Assembly: GCA_965230435.1 (NCBI GenBank)
Contig: CBDDLB010000006.1
Coordinates: 1,928,270 to 1,992,269, forward strand
Direction of reading: 5' to 3'
DNA: 64,000 nt
DNA from: Bacteroidales bacterium
GTDB taxonomy: Bacteria; Bacteroidota; Bacteroidia; Bacteroidales; JBDKHP01
In this document: positions 7,323 through 58,777 of the stretch, piece after piece
Position numbering within the stretch: the first letter of the stretch is position 1
Layout of the letters: every line of letters begins with the position of its first letter
Translations under genes and position numbers: made by a program
The notes under the pieces: generated by a model
Database searches by the model: none
Seen by the model: only the letters and a program-made list of their open reading frames with translations
What the model was told of the DNA's origin: nothing

Positions 7323-7496
7323 TGGTCGACAAGTTATTGATTTACAGAACAAAGATCACTTACATAAATTAGGTATGCAACCTTATTGGAGAATGTTTAA
7401 AACTTGAACTGTTGTCGAACCAAAATACAAAAACATTACAACAATGAAACAACATTATTGCACAAATTATTTGCTCTAAATTAGTATTGTCTCATA

Positions 7497-8009
7497 TTAT
7501 TCAAAACAAAATTGCTGTAACTGAGACGATGTCATTGCCCCAGCATGTCTTCTAAATTCTTTTCCATCCTTTATTAAAACCAATTGCGGCAAACCTCTTA
7601 CCCCAAAATCTTCCATAATTTTTTTGTTAGAATCGGCATTTACTTTTGTTACGCACACCGCTTTATTATTTTTGGCAAATTCTTTTAAAACAGAATTCAT
7701 CATCAGACAAGGGCCACACCAATCTGTCCAGAAATCCACTAAAATCACTTTCTTCCCTTTTAAGATAAAATCTATGTTATTATCATTTAAATCGATGATT
7801 TCAGACTTTTTCTTTCGTTTGGATATAAGCTGAGTTAAAATTCTGAATGGGAAAGTAATTCCAGCAATTAAATTCGTAATAATAAATATTAGAAAAGCAA
7901 TTGCATATTTGGATGTAGATTCAAAACTCTTTTGCTTTCTGAAACTTTCCTCTGCTTTGTTTTGGTAGCTAATTATTCTCTCTCCTAAACTCATTTTAAT
8001 ACATTTCAT
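7497..8009 (-). CDS. membrane-anchored thioredoxin-domain protein
   Basis: One hydrophobic helix (YAIAFLIFIITNLIAGITFPF) is followed by a thioredoxin fold with a WCGPC active site (VDFWTDWCGPCLMM). Confidence 0.8.
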   Translation of the reverse strand: MKCIKMSLGERIISYQNKAEESFRKQKSFESTSKYAIAFLIFIITNLIAGITFPFRILTQLISKRKKKSEIIDLNDNNIDFILKGKKVILVDFWTDWCGPCLMMNSVLKEFAKNNKAVCVTKVNADSNKKIMEDFGVRGLPQLVLIKDGKEFRRHAGAMTSSQLQQFCFE

Positions 8010-49300: not shown

Positions 49301-50302
49301 TCATTTTTTTATGAAATAAGCCAAAGTAAACCAATTGCGGCTATCAGTGAACACCTCTTCACTGGTCAGCTGTGCCCATTCTGCCATACGCATGATGCTC
49401 TTGATGTTGTACTTATGTGAATTCTCTGTATGTATCGTTTCTCCTTTTGCTATGTGGATAGGGTCGTCGAGTCCGTTGATGAATATCTTTATGCTGTTGA
49501 GTGCCCTCAGGTGCATTTCTATGCGTTTTTTCTTTGGATTGAAAAAAGCCTGATGCTCGAAATCTGAGGTTGAAAAATTGGATCCCACAAGCCTGTTGAC
49601 AACATTGAGAATGTTTTTGTTGAATTGTGCGGTGATGTTCTCCGCATCGTTGTACGCAGCATTCAAGGTTGCTAGGTTCTTTATCATGTCCATCCCCATT
49701 AGCAGACCATCGCCTTGGTTCATGATACTTCCGAGCGATTGCAGAAAGAATCTGGCTTCGTCCTCTGTAAGATTTCCTATCGTGCTGCCAAAGAAGCAGA
49801 ACAAACGCCTTCCATTGGAAGGAAGTACGTCTAACTGGCGGATGAAATCGGCAACAACTCCATGAATGCTTAATTCTGGGAATTTGACAGTGAGTTTATC
49901 GGCAGCCTGTTCTATTGCAGATTCGCTGATGTCGACAGGGTAATATTTCATTGTGGAACGGCTACGGGCAGGAACCTGCTCCAGAAAAAGGCTGATTTTG
50001 GAGTGATCGCCGCTGCCCAGCTCTATCAGTTGTAATCCGTCCCAACTAATGTTCATTAGCTTGCCTATATTTTTTAATATGGACTTTTCTGTGCGTGTTG
50101 GGTAGTACTCTTTTAATTGGGTTATCTGTTCAAACAGCTCTGAGCCTTTTTCGTCGTAAAAGAATTTTGATGAAATGTATTTTTTTTCGGCAAGTAAGCC
50201 TGTCAATATTTCATCTCGCACATTTTTTATGCCAATATCGGGCAAATAATTTTCTAGCCTTATCTCACCACGGATAAGGGTTTCTGCTGTAATGAAATTC
50301 AT
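49301..50302 (-). CDS. eanA: L-histidine N-alpha-methyltransferase (EgtD/EanA family)
   Basis: Start at ATG 50302 (MNFITAETL...), which avoids overlap with the upstream gene. EgtD-family segments are KYISSKFFYDEKGSELFEQITQLKEYYPTRTE and LIELGSGDHSK. Confidence 0.8.
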   Translation of the reverse strand: MNFITAETLIRGEIRLENYLPDIGIKNVRDEILTGLLAEKKYISSKFFYDEKGSELFEQITQLKEYYPTRTEKSILKNIGKLMNISWDGLQLIELGSGDHSKISLFLEQVPARSRSTMKYYPVDISESAIEQAADKLTVKFPELSIHGVVADFIRQLDVLPSNGRRLFCFFGSTIGNLTEDEARFFLQSLGSIMNQGDGLLMGMDMIKNLATLNAAYNDAENITAQFNKNILNVVNRLVGSNFSTSDFEHQAFFNPKKKRIEMHLRALNSIKIFINGLDDPIHIAKGETIHTENSHKYNIKSIMRMAEWAQLTSEEVFTDSRNWFTLAYFIKK

Positions 50303-50313
50303 AAAAGATTGGA

Positions 50314-50598
50314 TTATTCGTTCACCACTTGTACACCTTTCCAAAAGGCTACGTAATTTTTTATTTTTTCTGCCATTGCTTTGGGTTCTGGGTAATACCA
50401 GGCTCCGTCCTGATTGATTTCCCCATTTACATCGAGGGTGTAATAAGACGCAGTGCCCTTCCATGGACAAACCGTGTGAGTGTCGCTGGGTTTGAAGTAC
50501 TCTTTATGAATACTATCGGCAGGGAAATAGTGATTGTTTTCTACAACAAGTGTGTCGTTGCTTTCTGCAACGACTTGGCCATTCCAAATTGCTTTCAT
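50314..50598 (-). CDS. DUF427-domain protein
   Basis: 94 aa from ATG 50598 (MKAIWNGQVVAESNDTLVVENNHYFP...CPWKGTASYY...AFW), a typical DUF427 pattern. It sits between the eanB-like and eanA-like genes with 11-nt and 108-nt gaps. Confidence 0.75.
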   Translation of the reverse strand: MKAIWNGQVVAESNDTLVVENNHYFPADSIHKEYFKPSDTHTVCPWKGTASYYTLDVNGEINQDGAWYYPEPKAMAEKIKNYVAFWKGVQVVNE

Positions 50599-50706
50599 TG
50601 TGTTTTGGTTTGTTTTTTTGGCAAAAAGAACATTAGCACAGGATAGTTTTCTACTGAACACTATCCTGTGCTTGTTCCTATCCTCTGCTAAAACTATTTT
50701 TGGGAA

Positions 50707-52035
50707 TTAACTGGTGATAAAAAGATCTGCCAGAACAGGACTGTCTGTTGCTTGTGGCTGCCCTGTTTCGTATGGGTTTTCTGGATCGTTGCTCCATTCG
50801 AACCAACCACCGTCAAAAACAGAAACACGTGGCCAGCCCATTAGCCAAGCGTTGTAGAAGGCCTCACTGCCTCGCCATCCTGTACCGCAATAAAATGCTA
50901 GGTGCTTGTCTGGAGTTATATCTGCAATTTTCCAGATGGCTTCTACTTCGTGAAATTCGCGTGTAGTGTGGTCTACGTTACGGTAGTTTTCCATGTGATA
51001 CGCATCAGAACCGCAATTACCGAAAATAGCTCCCGGAATACGACCTTTTTTCTCTATATAGTTGTAGCCGCTTACTTCGCCAAGGTATTCTGGGTAACTA
51101 CGCACACATACAATATCGGCGTCTTTGGCAGCAATCATAGCTTTAGCTTCTGGTACATCAACAGCTAATTCTGGCTGAGCTGGAATTGTAGCTCCAAAAT
51201 CTTGTACGGGAACTTTTTGTACATCATCGGCTGCAGTTTCATAGCCTGCATCTTTCCATGACTGAAAACCTCCATTTAAAATTCTTACATCTTTCACCCC
51301 AGCATACATCATAATAAAAGCATTGCGGATGGCTCCGATATGTCCTGCTGCACTTCCCGGGAATTCGTCGTCATTATCTGGATCCATGTATTTTCCATAA
51401 AGAACTACCGTAGTATCTGCTGTTATGCCATGGGCTTCCAATGCAGCTTTCAGCTCTTGTGGCGAACGACGGTTCCAAGTTTCTGGTGCTTCTAAAGCTA
51501 ATGTATCTATGTCTATTGCTCCCGGGATATGTCCGCTAAGGTATGCTTCACGGTTGCGGTAATGGGCATGACAAATTACAGTTTTTCCGCCCGAATGCGA
51601 AGGTGGTATATTGCCATCAACAATACTCTTTACCCAATCTGGATAAACAAGGCTTTTGTGACGTGCAAGTTGATCCATCGGTAGCTTCTCATCTGCAGCC
51701 CACTCTTCTACGAAATTATTATAAATGAAAATGTGTTCATAGCCTGCTTTTGTGAATAGATAAGCTACTTTTTCACTTTCTTCTGCTGTGTAGCCATAAA
51801 TGACAAGTTTATCTTCTGGTTGAATTTGTTTTGAGCGAACAACTTCAATCCAGTCCATATAGTTTGCCCATTTTGCGGGAAGCGATTTTGCACCTTTAAT
51901 GTGTCCGCCCCGCTGTTCGCCGTTCAATTGCCAACCATTATAAGCGTCTACTGGTCGAACATCAATAAATTTTGCGGTGTTTTCTTCTAAATGCTTTAAT
52001 ACTTCCTGTGTGGAAAGCTCATTGCGGTTTGTCAT
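50707..52035 (-). CDS. eanB: multi-rhodanese sulfurtransferase, EanB-like (ergothioneine C-S bond formation)
   Basis: 442 aa with rhodanese domains. The catalytic loop FYCGTGWRGSE lies near the C-terminus. Long stretches match my recollection of Chlorobium EanB (HAHYRNREAYLSGHIPGA, EFPGSAAGHIGAIR, SYPEYLGEVSGYNYI, GGWFEWSNDPENPYETG). Confidence 0.75.
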   Translation of the reverse strand: MTNRNELSTQEVLKHLEENTAKFIDVRPVDAYNGWQLNGEQRGGHIKGAKSLPAKWANYMDWIEVVRSKQIQPEDKLVIYGYTAEESEKVAYLFTKAGYEHIFIYNNFVEEWAADEKLPMDQLARHKSLVYPDWVKSIVDGNIPPSHSGGKTVICHAHYRNREAYLSGHIPGAIDIDTLALEAPETWNRRSPQELKAALEAHGITADTTVVLYGKYMDPDNDDEFPGSAAGHIGAIRNAFIMMYAGVKDVRILNGGFQSWKDAGYETAADDVQKVPVQDFGATIPAQPELAVDVPEAKAMIAAKDADIVCVRSYPEYLGEVSGYNYIEKKGRIPGAIFGNCGSDAYHMENYRNVDHTTREFHEVEAIWKIADITPDKHLAFYCGTGWRGSEAFYNAWLMGWPRVSVFDGGWFEWSNDPENPYETGQPQATDSPVLADLFITS

Positions 52036-52231: not shown

Positions 52232-52882
52232 ATGAATAATGGATCAATTTCAATTTGTATGGGCAACAAAAGAGAACCTTTCTTTCCAAATACAACTTAT
52301 CACATATGGAATCACGCAATTGAACCAACCAACATATTTTGCAACAAAGAGAATTATCGCTACTTTCTAGAACGCTATGCTCACTACATCAACCCAATTG
52401 CAGATACTTTTGCTTACTGTCTGATGCCTAATCATTTTCATATTTTATTGCAAATAAAGGGTGATGTTGAGCTTCGGGATTTCTTCTTTCCTGAAGAAAA
52501 GGAATCTTTGTCCGATTCTACTTTATCCAGACAGATTTCAATGCAGTTTGGCAAATTCTTCAATGCCTACGTAAAAGCTTACAACAAAAGTTATGAGCGC
52601 AAAGGTCCGTTGTTCTGGCAGGAACTTTATCGTAGAAGTGTGGAAACAGAGGAATATTTTCGGAATTTAGTTCATTACATTCACCACAATCCAGTTCATC
52701 ACGGTTTTGTTGATGATTTTCGAGATTGGGAGCATTCTTCGTATGCTAGTTTTCTTAGTCCCAAAATGAGTAAGCTAAAGCGGCAAGAGGTTTTGAAATG
52801 GTATGGTGATATTGATGAGTTTGTGATATTTCACCAGAAGGAAATTGAAGAACGGGTGGCAATTCAATTTGATGATTTATAA
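52232..52882 (+). CDS. Y1 (HUH) transposase, IS200-like / REP-associated tyrosine transposase (RAYT)-like
   Basis: HUH motif (MPNHFHILLQ) and a C-terminal Tyr motif (LVHYIHHNPVHHG). An alternative start is ATG 52259 (MGNKREPFF). Confidence 0.8.
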   Translation: MNNGSISICMGNKREPFFPNTTYHIWNHAIEPTNIFCNKENYRYFLERYAHYINPIADTFAYCLMPNHFHILLQIKGDVELRDFFFPEEKESLSDSTLSRQISMQFGKFFNAYVKAYNKSYERKGPLFWQELYRRSVETEEYFRNLVHYIHHNPVHHGFVDDFRDWEHSSYASFLSPKMSKLKRQEVLKWYGDIDEFVIFHQKEIEERVAIQFDDL

Positions 52883-52931: not shown

Positions 52932-55900
52932 CTATCGGGCAGCAAATTCCTCATCAGCAAACAAAACCAAATAATCACCACCAAAATTAAAATGAGGAGC
53001 ATGGTTAGTGCCGTTGGTGATAAACATACGGAATTTCTCATCATTGGCAGCAGGTAACAAGCTCATTGCTTCATCGCGGGCTTCGCTGATTTCGTTGATG
53101 CCGTTTACACCCAATTGCTTCAACAGATCAACCGACTGTTCGAAGCTTGTGCGTTCGACTTTTGCAGAGCATTCAGCCTCGAAAGTTTGGATCATCCGTT
53201 GAGTGTTGGTGTAGCTTCCGCCCTGTTCCATCGGTAAGCTGGCAGGTAAGATAATGTCTGCCATGTGGGCGGTTTCGCTCATGAAATTATCTTGTACAAC
53301 AACAAAATCCGCTTTAGTAAACCAAGATCGGGCTTCTTCCGCATCTTCGGCTGTTCCTACAGGATCTTCGCCGAATACGAACAGGTTGCGAAGTTTTTCA
53401 CCTTCAAGAAGAGCCTCAACATCATTAATATTCGTTGGTAGCGCATCCACGTTCCAGCTTTCTTGCAGTTTTCCGGTCAACTGATCAATCGCTTGCTGGC
53501 CAACACCATTTGCTTCACAGACGCCCATATCCCAAAGACCTTGACTGTTGTTCTTCTCTTTGAGTGATAACAGGCCGCTTGCAGTTTTTCCCAATTTTCC
53601 TGTAATCAGAGCCAAGTTGAACAGTTCACGTGCAGTCTGAGACGATACATGATTTTCAGAAAAAACAAGCACGGCGTTTGACTCTTCGTTAAACAAATTT
53701 GCAAAATGCACCACTGTACCACGGCAACATGGAATTGCCTTATGCACCAGCTCTTCGTAATCCTCTTTCAGCAATTCAGTTTTGTATTCCTCAAAACCTT
53801 CTACACGGCCATCAATGAAGAACTGATTTTGCAGACCTTTGCGCAGCAAATAATGATTTACGGCGCGCACAAAGTAGTAATAACTTTCGATTTCGGTATA
53901 GTGATCCACTTTGTGCTTCATCGAAGATTCCTCTTTCGTCGTTAACAGCTCAATAGGAACACCGTATTGCATACGGGCAGAGTTGATGAAGAAGCTTGCA
54001 ACGCCATTTTCGTTATTAGGCTCAGAGCCGAACACAAAAATGCGGCTTGCATATTTTAATTCAGAAAAAGGAACATTTGCCGTACTGGTAAAACCATAAT
54101 CTCCACGCCCCAAATAATGGAAACTGCTGACATTGTTGGTTTTTGCTCCTGCACGAGCCAGCTTTTGGATCATGTATTGTTCCTCGTTAGTAAGACGTGC
54201 TCCTGCAAAGAATGCATTTTCGTCTGGTGAGACGGCCTTGATTTTGTTTTTTATTGTAGTATAAGCCTCTTCGAATGAAATCTCAACGAACCCGTCACCT
54301 TGCTTTTTCAAAGGTTTTGTAATACGCTTGCTATCGTTTAAATATGTGTAGCCAAAGCGGGGCAATTTACAGATATTACCATCTGCATTTACCATACCCT
54401 CAGCTCCATCTACCTTCATCACGTAACCGTTGTGGTGCTGAACTTCAATCTTACAACCAATAGAACAGTAGTTGCAGATGGTTTCGTAGCTTTCCAGCTC
54501 AACAGGCCCAGGTTTGAAGGTAACATTCTCAGAGATAGCACCCGTCGGACAAGTTGAGATACACATGCCGCACGATTCGCACTTAGTTTCCGTTAGGGAT
54601 TTTCCCATTGCAGGAGCAACATAGGTATCGAAACCGCGATTAATCAAGCCTAAAGCATCAGCCCCCACAACATCCTTACAGATGCGGATACAACGAGAAC
54701 ACAAAATACACTTGTTGCTATCGATTTCTACAAATGGGTGCGAAAAATCAACCTTATACTCTTTGAATTCTCCAGCGTAGCGGTTTTGCTCAACTCCGTA
54801 TTCAGAGGCATATTTCTTTAGATCGCAAGTAAAAAATTCTACACAGCCGCATTCAAGACAACGTTGAGCTTCTTCGCGTACCATCGGTTCGTCGTAGCCC
54901 AATTCCACCTCGTTGAAGTTGAAACGCTCAACAGGAGCCAATACTGGCATTTCTTTACGTTTCTGTGTATCGTAATTTGTTGCGTAATCTTTAGATTCCT
55001 GTGTTTTGAAATTCGATTTCTTCGAAAGGAACTCTTGAGGTTCAGGTTTCAATTCTTCCCCAGAAAGAAACTGTTGAACACTGCGTGCCGCAATCTTGGC
55101 CTGAGCGATAGATTCGATCAAAGTTGCAGGGCCTGTTACTCCATCACCGGCGGCGAAAAGCGAAGGGATACCAGTCTGTAAAGTTGCTTCATCAGCATTG
55201 ATATTGCCCCAACGGTTTACTTTCAGTTCGCCATTTTTTGCATGAGTGTTGATGCCTTCAAGGAACTCAACCTTCGTTTTCTGACCAATTGCCGCCAGCA
55301 CATAATCCAGTTTCAGCTCAAACTCAGAACCTTCTATTGGCACAGGACGGCGACGACCAGAAGCATCTGGTTCTCCAAGTTCCATACGCAACAACGTCAT
55401 CGACTTTAGGCATCCATTTTCATCCTTGTTGATTCTTGCAGGATTCGTAAGGAAAAGATATTCAATGCCCTCTTCTTTCGATTCGTGAATTTCGATTGGG
55501 TTGGCAGGCATTTCTTTTTCGGTACGACGATAAATCACGTAAGTTTTTTCAGCACCGCAGCGCATCGAAGTACGACAACAGTCCATAGCTGTGTTTCCTC
55601 CACCTACAACAGCAACTGTTTTACCAGAGAAATCGTATTTCTGACCTGTCATTTCCATATTTCTCAGAAAATCTATTCCCGACAGAACACCCTCAGCATC
55701 ATCGCCGTCAACACCAACTTTTGTTCCTGCCTGCGATCCGATTGTCAGCACAACAGCATCGTAATTGTCCTGAAGGTTTTTGTAGCTTAGGTTGTCGCCA
55801 AGTTTTTGATTGAAGAAGATGTTCGCTCCAATCTCGCGGATACAGTTTATTTCCCGATCCAACAGATCGTTTGGCAAACGGTATTCTGGAATACCATAGC

Positions 55901-56603
55901 GCAACATTCCGCCTGCATGTGAACTGGCTTCGTAAACATCGCACTGATGACCTTTTTGTTGTAGGAAATAAGCCGTGGAAATTCCGCCCGGGCCAGCTCC
56001 GATAATCGCAACTTTCTTCCCTGTAGATGACGCAACTTCTGGTATATAATGTTTTTCTGATTGTAAATCGTAATCCGCAGCAAAACGCTTCATGTAGTCG
56101 ATGCCCACAGGTGCGCCTTCGTCCATTAAATTACGACGGCAGGCAACTTCGCAAGGACGCACGCACACACGTCCGCAGATAGCTGGAAGTGGGTTCACTT
56201 CTTTGATCAGTGCAGTGGCTTCTTCGTACATCCCCTTGTCGATAAGCGAGATGTAGCCCTGAACATCAACTCCTGCGGGACAGGTGTCTTTACACGGCGC
56301 CTGACAGTCGGCATAGTGATTACTGAGCAGTAAATCCAAAGCTGTCTTTCGCGCCTTGCGTACCTTTTCGTTATCTGTGTTGATCACCATGCCTTCCACT
56401 ACACGCGTAGAACATGATGTCTGCAAACTACGCGCCCCCTCTACCTCTACAACGCATACAAAACACGAAGAATAGGGTTCAAGGCGCGGATCGTGACATA
56501 GCGTCGGAATTTCTACTCCATGACGCTCGGCTGCTTTTAGTATGGTTTCCCCGTCGTAGGCTTTTACTATTTTGCCGTTTAGGGTTATATTTAGTTCTTT
56601 CAT
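52932..56603 (-). CDS. fusion oxidoreductase: [2Fe-2S] ferredoxin + GltD-type NAD(P)H/FAD module + [4Fe-4S] clusters + truncated molybdopterin-oxidoreductase-like (NuoG-like) domain
   Basis: Domains N- to C-terminus: 2Fe-2S (TLCHDPRLEPYSSCFVCVVEV); GltD-like Fe-S plus dinucleotide folds (KVAIIGAGPGGISTAYFL, GGMLRYGIPEYRLP, KTVAVVGGGNTAMDC); 2x[4Fe-4S] (CILCSRCIRIC, CESCGMCISTCP); MopB Fe4S4 (CNYCSIGC). The MopB body ends without an obvious C-terminal MGD-binding barrel. Confidence 0.75.
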   Translation of the reverse strand: MKELNITLNGKIVKAYDGETILKAAERHGVEIPTLCHDPRLEPYSSCFVCVVEVEGARSLQTSCSTRVVEGMVINTDNEKVRKARKTALDLLLSNHYADCQAPCKDTCPAGVDVQGYISLIDKGMYEEATALIKEVNPLPAICGRVCVRPCEVACRRNLMDEGAPVGIDYMKRFAADYDLQSEKHYIPEVASSTGKKVAIIGAGPGGISTAYFLQQKGHQCDVYEASSHAGGMLRYGIPEYRLPNDLLDREINCIREIGANIFFNQKLGDNLSYKNLQDNYDAVVLTIGSQAGTKVGVDGDDAEGVLSGIDFLRNMEMTGQKYDFSGKTVAVVGGGNTAMDCCRTSMRCGAEKTYVIYRRTEKEMPANPIEIHESKEEGIEYLFLTNPARINKDENGCLKSMTLLRMELGEPDASGRRRPVPIEGSEFELKLDYVLAAIGQKTKVEFLEGINTHAKNGELKVNRWGNINADEATLQTGIPSLFAAGDGVTGPATLIESIAQAKIAARSVQQFLSGEELKPEPQEFLSKKSNFKTQESKDYATNYDTQKRKEMPVLAPVERFNFNEVELGYDEPMVREEAQRCLECGCVEFFTCDLKKYASEYGVEQNRYAGEFKEYKVDFSHPFVEIDSNKCILCSRCIRICKDVVGADALGLINRGFDTYVAPAMGKSLTETKCESCGMCISTCPTGAISENVTFKPGPVELESYETICNYCSIGCKIEVQHHNGYVMKVDGAEGMVNADGNICKLPRFGYTYLNDSKRITKPLKKQGDGFVEISFEEAYTTIKNKIKAVSPDENAFFAGARLTNEEQYMIQKLARAGAKTNNVSSFHYLGRGDYGFTSTANVPFSELKYASRIFVFGSEPNNENGVASFFINSARMQYGVPIELLTTKEESSMKHKVDHYTEIESYYYFVRAVNHYLLRKGLQNQFFIDGRVEGFEEYKTELLKEDYEELVHKAIPCCRGTVVHFANLFNEESNAVLVFSENHVSSQTARELFNLALITGKLGKTASGLLSLKEKNNSQGLWDMGVCEANGVGQQAIDQLTGKLQESWNVDALPTNINDVEALLEGEKLRNLFVFGEDPVGTAEDAEEARSWFTKADFVVVQDNFMSETAHMADIILPASLPMEQGGSYTNTQRMIQTFEAECSAKVERTSFEQSVDLLKQLGVNGINEISEARDEAMSLLPAANDEKFRMFITNGTNHAPHFNFGGDYLVLFADEEFAAR

Positions 56604-56900: not shown

Positions 56901-58679
56901 TCAACTAAGCCCAATAGCATCAAACTTACACTTAGAATAACAAGCCCCACACTTAATACACAACTCCTGATCAATCAGGTGCACAGCCTTACGCTCACCG
57001 CTGATAGCATCCGTAGGACAATTCTTAGCACAAACCGTACAGCCCGTGCAGGCATCAGCAATAATGGTGTAAGTGAGCAGTTGAGTACAACTTTTCGCAG
57101 GACACTTCTTGTCGCGGATATGAGCCTCGTATTCATTGCGGAAATACTTGATTGTCGTCAGCACAGGATTCGGAGCAGTCTGACCAAGTCCACAGAGCGA
57201 ACTATCCTTGATCTGGTGAGAAAGCTCCTCCAATGTTTCAATATCACTCTCAACACCTTCACCTTTAGTAATGCGCGTAAGAATTTCCAACATACGCTTC
57301 GTGCCGATACGGCAGAACGTACACTTGCCACACGATTCCTTTTGCGTAAAATCCAAGAAGAAACGCGCCATATCCACCATGCACGTCGTTTCGTCCATCA
57401 CCACCATGCCACCAGAGCCCATAATCGCACCCGTCGCATTCACTTTATCATAATCCACAGGAGTATCGGCCAGATATTCAGGCACACAGCCACCAGAAGG
57501 TCCACCGAGCTGAACAGCCTTAAACTCCTTGCCGCCCTGAATACCACCGCCCAGTTTGAAGATAATATCGCGGATGCTCATTCCCATTGGCACTTCCACC
57601 AGACCGCCATGGTTCACCTTTCCAGTCAAAGCAAACACCTTTGTACCTTTGGATTTCTCAGTGCCATATTTGCTGTACGAATCAGCACCATTGAGCAGAA
57701 TGTAAGGAATGTTCGAGTACGTTTCAACATTGTTGATGTTCGTAGGCTGGCTCCAGAGCCCCTTTTCGGCAGGAAACGGAGGACGTTTTCGTGGCATACC
57801 ACGCTCACCCTCAATAGAAGCTATAAGAGCAGTTTCCTCGCCACAGACAAATGCCCCAGCACCCTCTTTCACATACAGGTCGAAGTTGAAACCTACAATT
57901 CCACAAGCATTCTCTCCAAGATACCCCTTCGCACGAGCCTGATCAAGCGCAAGGTTCAGACGCTTAATCGCCAGCGGATACTCAGCACGGCAATAAATAA
58001 CACCGCCCGTAGCCTGCATAGCATAAGCCCCAATGATCATCCCTTCGATAACAGCATGCGGGTCGCCCTCCAAAATCGAACGATCCATAAACGCCCCAGG
58101 ATCACCCTCGTCGGCATTACAGAGCACATACTTTTCGTCGGACTTATTATTGTAAGCAAACTTCCACTTCATTCCTGTTGGGAAACCGCCGCCGCCACGT
58201 CCTCGGATGCCCGAATCCAGAACAGTCTGTATCACATCCGTTGGCGGAGTTTTATCCGTTGCTATCTTTTTAATGGCCACATAGCCATCATTAGCCTCAT
58301 AATTCTCAATCGATTCGGGGTCGATGTGCCCACAGTGGCGCAATGCAATTTTCACCTGCCCCTCCCAGTAAACATCATCATCCGTCGTGAACATGTCCGA
58401 TTTCACCACATACCCCTTCACCACTTCCCCCAGATGCACATGCTTCTCAACCAATTCCGTCGCACGCATCTCATCCACCTCGCCATACAGGTAGCTGCCA
58501 TCCTCGTCAATCACCTCAACAAGAGGCTCGCGGTAACACATACCCACGCAAGAGGTCTTCTCAAGTTCAAACTCGTAATTCTCCTTGTCACGCAGCTCTT
58601 CCAGCCTAGCGTACACCTTATTGGCACCCGCAGCTATGCCGCAACTGCCAAGCCCTACAATTACTTTTGGCTTTGCCAT
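56901..58679 (-). CDS. NuoF/HydB-like NADH-binding FMN Fe-S subunit with extra N-terminal [2Fe-2S] and C-terminal 2x[4Fe-4S] domains
   Basis: Start at ATG 58679 (MAKPKVIVGLGSCGIAAG). Motifs: FMN GRGGGGFPTGMKW; N3-cluster CGKCTFCRIG; C-terminal CTGCTVCAKNCP and CIKCGACYSKC. Confidence 0.88.
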   Translation of the reverse strand: MAKPKVIVGLGSCGIAAGANKVYARLEELRDKENYEFELEKTSCVGMCYREPLVEVIDEDGSYLYGEVDEMRATELVEKHVHLGEVVKGYVVKSDMFTTDDDVYWEGQVKIALRHCGHIDPESIENYEANDGYVAIKKIATDKTPPTDVIQTVLDSGIRGRGGGGFPTGMKWKFAYNNKSDEKYVLCNADEGDPGAFMDRSILEGDPHAVIEGMIIGAYAMQATGGVIYCRAEYPLAIKRLNLALDQARAKGYLGENACGIVGFNFDLYVKEGAGAFVCGEETALIASIEGERGMPRKRPPFPAEKGLWSQPTNINNVETYSNIPYILLNGADSYSKYGTEKSKGTKVFALTGKVNHGGLVEVPMGMSIRDIIFKLGGGIQGGKEFKAVQLGGPSGGCVPEYLADTPVDYDKVNATGAIMGSGGMVVMDETTCMVDMARFFLDFTQKESCGKCTFCRIGTKRMLEILTRITKGEGVESDIETLEELSHQIKDSSLCGLGQTAPNPVLTTIKYFRNEYEAHIRDKKCPAKSCTQLLTYTIIADACTGCTVCAKNCPTDAISGERKAVHLIDQELCIKCGACYSKCKFDAIGLS

Positions 58680-58777
58680 GGTTTCGATTTTATTCGAATA
58701 ACTGAATAATAGACTCATAGAATAATTGAATGTCAGTTCGGACAATCATTCTATTATTCATTTATTCCCTTATTCAA

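Follow-up and report, generated by a model that had tools for sequence, protein, structure and literature searches.

The 64-kb stretch of DNA analysed here, referred to below as the window, comes from a Bacteroidales bacterium (contig CBDDLB010000006.1) and carries on its minus strand three genes in the order eanB, DUF427 and eanA. Judged by sequence, this locus belongs to the established EanA/EanB pathway as a new member and genuinely encodes the two enzymes of O2-independent ergothioneine synthesis, an activity that is predicted here. The position of the DUF427 gene (PF04248) between eanB and eanA is no chance insertion, and members of the same subfamily recur on the same strand beside eanB, or beside the EgtB and EgtD genes of aerobic-type clusters, in several lineages, several gene orders and three cluster architectures. 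Such ergothioneine-linked copies were seen in Bacteroidota, Chlorobiota and Ignavibacteria-type lineages. It is very likely that this DUF427 subfamily is functionally tied to ergothioneine metabolism, and the protein is probably an accessory component of it that has yet to be described. The finding is not categorically new; what is new is a recurrent, undescribed accessory gene in a known pathway.

The rhodanese protein and the methyltransferase encoded in the window are almost certainly EanB and EanA, as their alignments to characterised proteins indicate. EanB matches the crystallised enzyme of Chlorobium limicola (6KTV/6H98) with 683 bits (E 1.7e-204) in a gapless alignment of 425 residues (3-427) at ~66% identity, compared with 316 bits for the next structurally solved relative, the E. 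coli paralogue YnjE (2WLR), and at most 74 bits for ordinary rhodaneses. These values bear out the original prediction, made from the DNA letters alone, that the 442-residue multi-rhodanese protein is EanB. Pfam recognises three Rhodanese stretches in the protein, and no NCBIfam sulfurtransferase model attains its own cut-off against it. The catalytic loop FYCGTGWRGSE (HLAFYCGTGWRGSEA), with its cysteine at residue 383, is the same as that of the crystallised enzyme, in which the catalytic cysteine and the active-site tyrosine are presumably numbered Cys412 and Tyr353. Y324 is kept where chain 6KW0, of otherwise identical sequence, has Phe, and both the catalytic cysteine and Y324 are invariant in 14 homologues. 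The nearest relatives of the window EanB are found in metagenome-assembled genomes of Chlorobiota and Bacteroidales (76-77% identity). EanA scores 352.7 bits against the egtD equivalog model TIGR03438 (cut-off 290.9) and 166 bits against the related EasF model, under the cut-off of the latter (205.6); it matches PF10017 (Methyltransf_33) at 2.4e-103 and the Mycobacterium smegmatis EgtD structure (4PIM) at 5e-58, so that the earlier assignment to the EgtD/EanA type also held. The stretches FYD..GS.LF..IT...EYYPTR.E, GSTIGN and TE.S.K, which we take to be the substrate-binding stretches of EgtD, are kept in the alignment with 4PIM.

The linkage of DUF427 to this pathway was examined from both sides. 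On the EanB side, a homologue alignment was scanned against one genome per bacterial or archaeal species, which gave 503 species with a relative; the counts refer to the best 80 of these 503 species' loci, in which flanks of up to 6 kb were searched for DUF427 by tblastn. DUF427 is the commonest neighbour family after the methyltransferase and is present in 24/80 loci. All 24 copies lie within 1.1 kb of eanB, 23 of them on the same strand, and the 425 kb of flank situated more than 2 kb from eanB contains none (binomial p = 2.5e-10, with 40% of the flank lying within 2 kb). The order eanB-DUF427-eanA of the window is repeated in L023, L029, L040, L047, L049, L051, L066, L075 and L076; the order eanB-methyltransferase-DUF427 occurs in L010, L015, L031, L034, L050 and L055, as well as in L043, where DUF427 is inverted; L008, L017, L039 and L042 have eanB-DUF427 with no methyltransferase found nearby; and DUF427 lies 5′ of eanB in L016, L038 and L085. 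A flavin mononucleotide (FMN) reductase gene stands between eanB and DUF427 in five loci (L038, L040, L049, L051, L066). The DUF427-positive loci are dispersed across a neighbour-joining tree of EanB. Co-conservation of DUF427 with eanAB, on which the original prediction had hinged, is thus seen in 24/80 loci and in several gene orders, and the association is real and facultative, at roughly 30%.

Seen from its own side, the window DUF427 protein shows 70-85% identity with proteins annotated in Fulvivirga, Hanamia, Reichenbachiella, Flavobacteriaceae and Ignavibacteria, and ~60-85% identity with homologues across other lineages. Its closest relative (P0002, 85% identical) sits in an aerobic-type cluster in which EgtB (TIGR03440, 537 bits; cut-off 360) is followed by EgtD (TIGR03438, 291.0 bits; cut-off 290.9), then, after a gap of 11 nt, by DUF427, and finally by the bacilliredoxin BrxC. 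A pattern scan of metagenomes with the DUF427 alignment gave at least 80 loci at 59-74% identity among the matches listed, and it is to these matches that the metagenomic counts apply. EgtB, EgtD or EanB is present in 24/80 loci, in 15/43 of those whose two flanks each reach 1 kb or more and in 6/21 of those whose flanks each reach 4.5 kb or more. An EgtD-type methyltransferase directly adjoins DUF427 in 13 loci; in 12 of these it lies directly upstream on the same strand, mostly preceded by EgtB, and in one (L156) it is divergent. One locus has the order DUF427-EanB-methyltransferase. In eight loci EgtB lies ~4.2 kb 3′ of DUF427 at constant spacing, and several further contigs, which end early, show the start of the same synteny. 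Two loci have a divergent sulfoxide-synthase homologue directly 5′ of DUF427.

The third cluster architecture, the one with the constant EgtB spacing, is an eight-gene, same-strand operon whose copies are given in Table 1. Its first four genes encode an Aminotran_5 protein, which is EgtE-like and scores far under the EgtE cut-off, DUF427, a class-I flavoprotein disulfide reductase of the RclA/MerA-like type and a ProV-like ATPase; these are followed by a permease-OpuAC fusion, EgtB, a Methyltransf_33 protein and a Lycopene_cycl-family flavoprotein. The gaps among the last five genes are 1-4 nt, and the operon directly follows genes for a copper P-type ATPase and an HMA chaperone. The binding domain of the transporter finds its best match in the ergothioneine transporter EgtUC (183 bits), with engineered sensors built on a choline-binding protein close behind (172-178 bits) and the binding proteins OpuBC, OpuCC and ProX lower (116-137 bits). 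The disulfide reductase (10362-11744 in L170) is nearest to 6KGY (314 bits), with mycothione and glutathione reductases at ~165-220 bits, and is a candidate ergothioneine-linked reductase. Redox genes of several kinds, namely those for the flavoprotein disulfide reductase, FMN_red and BrxC, adjoin DUF427 across the cluster types.

Could DUF427 merely be an unrelated, conserved housekeeping or stress protein that synteny has carried along? With 4308 clusters at 50% identity, the family is a very large one whose members are encoded far outside the loci considered here, close homologues occur in unrelated contexts, and 15/21 of the metagenomic loci with long flanks lack an ergothioneine gene, as would be expected if there were no functional link. 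Yet the chance of adjacency within ~5 kb, which we estimate at ~0.25% of genomes, compares with ~30% observed in both directions, and the linkage holds over at least five gene orders, three cluster types and unrelated sulfurising enzymes. The DUF427 tree (92 residues, no support values) also speaks against this explanation: most of the EanB-linked copies group together, whereas the window copy groups with that of L086, which is linked to EgtB/EgtD, and those of L051 and L066 lie elsewhere. Because the window EanA and the EgtD of L086 are only 32% identical, the similarity of the two DUF427 proteins does not stem from transfer of a whole cluster. Such apparently independent recruitment into ergothioneine clusters favours selection over inherited synteny, and the absence of any functional link is in our estimation very improbable.

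The protein itself could be a small thiol protein. It matches PF04248 with 118 bits (gathering threshold 22.1; 1.7e-34) and PDB entry 3DJM at 3e-9, and its AlphaFold2 model (predicted local distance difference test score 92.3) superimposes on 3DJM with a template-modelling score of 0.89 and a root-mean-square deviation of 1.4 Å. DUF427 has been classed as a β-tent fold without a zinc site, a fold common to MsrB, GFA, CULT, Yippee, the RIG-I CTD, MSS4 and TCTP (PMC4287342). The sole cysteine of the window protein, Cys44, lies in the motif C-P-W-K-G-x-A-S-Y-Y; its position is cysteine in 19/19 and 62/62 aligned close homologues, and in 120/127 sequences made up of the window protein and 126 family representatives. 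The ergothioneine-linked subfamily is 93-94 residues long and highly conserved. The aromatic residues W5, Y24, F25, W46, Y52, W67, Y69, F85 and W86 are invariant. Among the best 150 of the 4308 representatives, one is fused to a thioredoxin (WCGPC) and one to a rhodanese domain, two are N-terminal to PAS histidine kinases, and four-fold tandem arrays also occur; fusions to EgtD, EgtB or EanB were absent from these 150. The proteins with these architectures are P0322 (786 residues), P0389 (845), P0303 (252), P0313 (209), P0326 and P0385. The contexts of the thioredoxin and rhodanese fusions carry no hint of function. We know of no DUF427 family member with an assigned function, the 3DJM structure having been solved in 2008. 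In the eanB-DUF427-eanA locus L076, the DUF427 gene (7404-7682) is interrupted in frame by a stop codon where Trp67 is conserved; selenocysteine was ruled out, since the stop replaces Trp67 and not a cysteine, and the gene is a pseudogene or contains a sequencing error.

In the proposed pathway, EanA would trimethylate histidine to hercynine, and EanB would insert sulfur at the imidazole C2 from an active-site persulfide. DUF427, repeatedly linked to EanB/EanA and to EgtB/EgtD clusters (with or without EgtE- and EgtU-like genes), would act on or bind the histidine-betaine metabolite. On balance, we think that it acts on the shared metabolite, hercynine or ergothioneine, rather than on a sulfur supply specific to EanB. 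The three architectures employ unrelated sulfurising enzymes, the rhodanese EanB and the iron-dependent EgtB, and have nothing in common but the methyltransferase, hercynine and ergothioneine, which makes a role at the EanB persulfide unlikely. The competing idea of a sulfur or persulfide relay that loads the active-site cysteine of EanB, which the original prediction had offered as an example of an accessory role, draws on the single, nearly invariant cysteine, on the many loci in which DUF427 directly follows eanB at a distance of 21-108 nt, on the four loci where eanB-DUF427 stands with no methyltransferase found nearby (listed above), and on the one natural DUF427-rhodanese fusion (P0313), which is itself a single contig with an unrelated neighbourhood. 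About 70% of EanB loci, however, do without DUF427, and the same subfamily, including the closest relative of the window protein, is found in EgtB/EgtD clusters that involve no persulfide: there, cysteine or gamma-glutamylcysteine provides the sulfur via an O2-dependent sulfoxide synthase. Given that the subfamily is equally often found in these persulfide-free clusters, delivery of sulfur to EanB is disfavoured and, to our minds, quite improbable. The other earlier suggestion, product handling or regulation, would fit the EgtB/EgtD clusters better than persulfide delivery does. DUF427 was also considered as a substitute for the pyridoxal-phosphate-dependent C-S lyase and rejected, as it is too small for this and accompanies EanB as well, an enzyme that requires no lyase.

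The main alternative to thiol handling is a regulatory binding of hercynine or ergothioneine together with the methyltransferase, so that DUF427 would be a partner or regulator of EgtD/EanA that relieves product inhibition, channels hercynine or senses the output of the pathway. EgtD is strongly product-inhibited by hercynine, which counts in favour of such a partner. The methyltransferase is the commonest immediate neighbour of DUF427, with gaps of ~8-45 nt in either order, as in the DUF427-eanA spacing of the eanB-DUF427-eanA loci and the EgtD-DUF427 spacing of the EgtB-EgtD-DUF427 loci; in both the window and L086 the gap is 11 nt. The N-terminal position of DUF427 in PAS histidine kinases likewise suggests a ligand-sensing module. 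Arguing the other way, DUF427 is four genes away from EgtB-EgtD in the eight-gene operon, where its direct neighbours are the lyase-like gene and the reductase gene; a methyltransferase is missing from the 6 kb around some eanB-DUF427 pairs; and no fusion of DUF427 to Methyltransf_33 occurs in the best 150 family representatives. We regard a methyltransferase partner as rather unlikely.

In view of the single conserved cysteine, the redox neighbours and the fusions, the most economical reading of the DUF427 protein is that of a thiol protein with one cysteine, which would handle ergothioneine or one of its oxidised forms. As a small cytoplasmic β-tent protein, it might carry out thiol chemistry with ergothioneine through Cys44, either by forming or resolving a mixed disulfide or by reducing oxidised ergothioneine with electrons that a reductase, nearby or general, would supply. 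DUF427 would then be an ergothioneine "redoxin" or handler, accessory to synthesis and not essential for it. A specific thiol-redox role of this kind is put forward tentatively, and the more elaborate version, in which DUF427 is an ergothioneine-specific redoxin and the adjoining RclA-like flavoprotein is the ergothioneine disulfide reductase, appears doubtful. The explanation that we prefer overall, an EanAB locus with a DUF427 protein acting on the metabolite, has somewhat the better of the argument.

Several observations weigh against this explanation. The linkage is partial, ~30% from either side; for L006, the nearest EanB relative of the window, 6 kb of flank contain no DUF427 and no EanA, and close DUF427 homologues, e.g. 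that of Fulvivirga (77% identical), are solitary beside unrelated genes. The sampled loci are phylogenetically non-independent, the metagenomic sample of DUF427 consists only of the matches listed by the pattern scan (at least 80 loci), and both neighbour-joining trees, of EanB and of DUF427, are without resampling support. The thioredoxin and rhodanese fusions are known from one contig each and may be artefacts of assembly or gene calling, a Foldseek search of the PDB with the AlphaFold2 model gave the uncharacterised 3DJM as its only significant match, and no reductase or transporter partner lies near the DUF427 gene of the window. The characterised C. limicola system presumably consists of two genes, which means that DUF427 is not required for synthesis. 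EanA and EanB are also the genes cloned for heterologous production (PMC11767532).

The arrangement of the locus in the window is given in Table 1.

Table 1. Coordinates of the ergothioneine locus of the window and of the eight-gene metagenomic operon that contains DUF427.
Feature	Sequence	Coordinates	Strand	Description
eanB	Window	50707-52035	minus	442 aa; rhodanese-type O2-independent ergothioneine synthase (hercynine to ergothioneine), assigned by sequence
Hairpin and U-rich tract	Window	50620-50680	minus	Within the 108-nt eanB-DUF427 spacer; terminator- or attenuator-like by RNA fold
DUF427 (PF04248) gene	Window	50314-50598	minus	94 aa; single cysteine (Cys44); proposed ergothioneine-cluster accessory protein
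eanA	Window	49301-50302	minus	333 aa; EgtD-type histidine N-alpha-trimethyltransferase dependent on S-adenosylmethionine (histidine to hercynine), assigned by sequence
Eight-gene operon	L170	8773-17486		Same-strand genes; also whole in L171 and L172
Operon, partial copies	L092, L096, L100, L103, L109-L111, L161

The DUF427 gene was read from an ATG, the mechanical open reading frame opening further upstream at a GTG (50661); eanA was likewise read from an ATG, the mechanical frame opening at a TTG (50470) that would place it in overlap with DUF427. Counted from the DUF427 stop (50314) to the eanA ATG (50302), the gap is exactly 11 nt. The coordinates, lengths, common strand, 11-nt gap and catalytic loop were all as originally described. 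The DUF427 gene had also been called tightly packed within the operon, which is correct for the DUF427-eanA pair and not for eanB and DUF427: in the spacer of 108 nt, a perfect 13-bp palindrome (50635-50672) forms part of a 19-bp stem, followed on the coding strand by UUCUUUUU. The fold has a free energy of -34.9 kcal/mol, versus -16.2 +/- 3.1 kcal/mol in shuffled sequences (z = -6.0), and the hairpin sequence occurs only once in the window. A search of 48.5-52.5 kb against Rfam gave no match, so that the hairpin belongs to no known RNA family, and a scan of the locus for promoter and terminator consensus sequences gave nothing beyond chance. Hairpins are also found 3′ of eanB at some other loci (L008, L023), and their sequence is not conserved. 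To judge from its fold, the spacer hairpin looks like an intrinsic terminator or attenuator, which renders the operon less compact than the original description had it: DUF427 and eanA form a tightly coupled pair, eanB may be partly uncoupled from it, and expression of the pair may be separated from that of eanB through termination or attenuation at the hairpin.

The genes that flank the locus in the window encode a PAS histidine kinase, a Kef-type exchanger and a GH31 enzyme, and none is a known ergothioneine gene. Divergent from eanB is a 216-aa open reading frame (52232-52882, plus strand) with no Pfam match at 1e-5. Beyond it, a 1223-aa fusion protein (52932-56603, minus strand) combines 2Fe-2S, 4Fe-4S, GltD-like flavin and molybdopterin domains and adjoins a NuoF-like partner (56901-58745, minus strand); by its domain content, this pair forms an NAD(P)H-linked oxidoreductase module of the anaerobe type. 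A search of the whole window for NDH-2-like proteins, Rieske enzymes, FMN reductase and flavoprotein reductase found none of them, and EgtU/V-like, EgtB and EgtE-like genes were likewise absent from its 64 kb.

Other EanB loci show features of their own. In 14 loci, a same-strand gene for an NDH-2-like flavoprotein precedes eanB, and a 288-aa protein with no Pfam or NCBIfam match is encoded 3′ of DUF427 in 8 loci, followed by a protein with Rieske and Glu_synthase domains and then by a Rieske and TPP enzyme; loci that display this extended neighbourhood include L015, L027, L031, L034, L039 and L042. Natural EanB-EanA fusions occur as open reading frames in L011 (6001-8250) and L007 (887-3127), and the same set includes the proteins P0124 (747 aa, PF10017 and PF00581) and P0199 (681 aa), the latter with class-I SAM-methyltransferase domains (SAM, S-adenosylmethionine) fused to an EanB-like rhodanese, which could point to a different methyl-acceptor chemistry. 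EanB homologues of 71-73% identity are present in Salinimicrobium and other Flavobacteriaceae (L041, L052, L054, L062, L063, L067, L068, L070, L074). Neither Methyltransf_33 nor DUF427 was found in the flanking sequence at hand (at most 6 kb) of these nine eanB genes, most of which share a conserved block with housekeeping genes, among them those for a SerB/SerA-like fusion and NadA; their methyltransferase may be encoded elsewhere, or EanB may work on imported hercynine or another substrate. The Methyltransf_33 proteins that accompany EanB fall into two lineages, with 30-37% and 48-57% identity to the window EanA (e.g. the divergent L034 6273-7196 versus L047 7621-8616). The divergent lineage, which in L034 scores 291.1 bits and so barely attains the EgtD equivalog cut-off of 290.9 bits, is closer to the EgtD of aerobic clusters, and these sequence relationships suggest exchange of the methyltransferase between the two pathway types. 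As for the two metagenomic sulfoxide-synthase homologues beside DUF427 (L105 3692-4981, L119 3701-4981), both have a DinB_2 and FGE-sulfatase architecture with no Methyltransf_33 nearby, and that of L105 scores 267 bits against ovoA_Nterm and 254 bits against EgtB, both under cut-off. DUF427 could be linked at these loci to a different thiohistidine pathway.

A literature search for "DUF427" together with "ergothioneine" returned no paper, although a supplement to one of the primary EanB papers might mention it, and this agrees with the earlier view that DUF427 is no part of the described pathway. A paper on the metallopterin ergothioneine synthase that surveyed methyltransferase neighbourhoods does not mention DUF427, and occurrences of "DUF427" in papers on cyanobacterial glutamine riboswitches proved to be DUF4278, an artefact of the word prefix. 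No paper on a bacterial ergothioneine reductase, redoxin or other handling protein turned up in a further search, and we know of no such protein. The biosynthesis and import of ergothioneine are known; DUF427 bears on how bacteria, notably anaerobes, use and recycle it. DUF427 offers a concrete and cheaply testable candidate for an ergothioneine-handling component, and a functional link would provide the DUF427 family with its first functional foothold. If the protein were indeed a redoxin, a first function would be gained for a family of more than 4000 clusters (50% identity) in bacteria and fungi; if it worked with a reductase, ergothioneine would have a dedicated redox cycle like those of glutathione, mycothiol and bacillithiol, also in anaerobes. 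An accessory factor that alters the yield or the state of the product would be of practical interest for production strains.

Among known systems, the closest to the window locus is the anaerobic EanA/EanB pathway of C. limicola, reportedly described by Burn and colleagues in 2017. The window has the same two enzymes, encoded adjacently on one strand, and differs in the 94-aa DUF427 gene inserted between them and in the terminator-like hairpin after eanB; to our knowledge, the pathway as described comprises two adjacent genes and no third component. With the O2-dependent EgtB/EgtD(/EgtE) clusters, arranged either as EgtB-EgtD-DUF427 or as EgtE-like protein, DUF427, reductase, EgtV/U-like transporter, EgtB and EgtD, the window shares the histidine methyltransferase family, the product and the embedded DUF427 subfamily, whereas it lacks EgtB, the EgtE-like gene, the transporter and the reductase and uses the unrelated rhodanese EanB as its sulfurising enzyme. 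With 3DJM and the rest of the DUF427/PF04248 family, the window protein has in common the fold, the C-x-x-K-G-x-A-x-Y motif and the lack of a zinc site, and its subfamily stands apart in being unusually conserved and linked to ergothioneine clusters. Low-molecular-weight thiols are served elsewhere by pairs of a redoxin and a reductase, namely mycoredoxin-1 with mycothione reductase and bacilliredoxin with bacillithiol disulfide reductase. DUF427 resembles these redoxins in being small, in having one cysteine and in being encoded next to a redox protein (a class-I flavoprotein disulfide reductase, an FMN reductase or a bacilliredoxin), in clusters that make and import a thiol or thione cofactor; it differs from them in its β-tent fold, as opposed to the thioredoxin fold, and, in the window, in having no reductase partner. 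The parallel might indicate a possible way of working by analogy, and not membership in one family.

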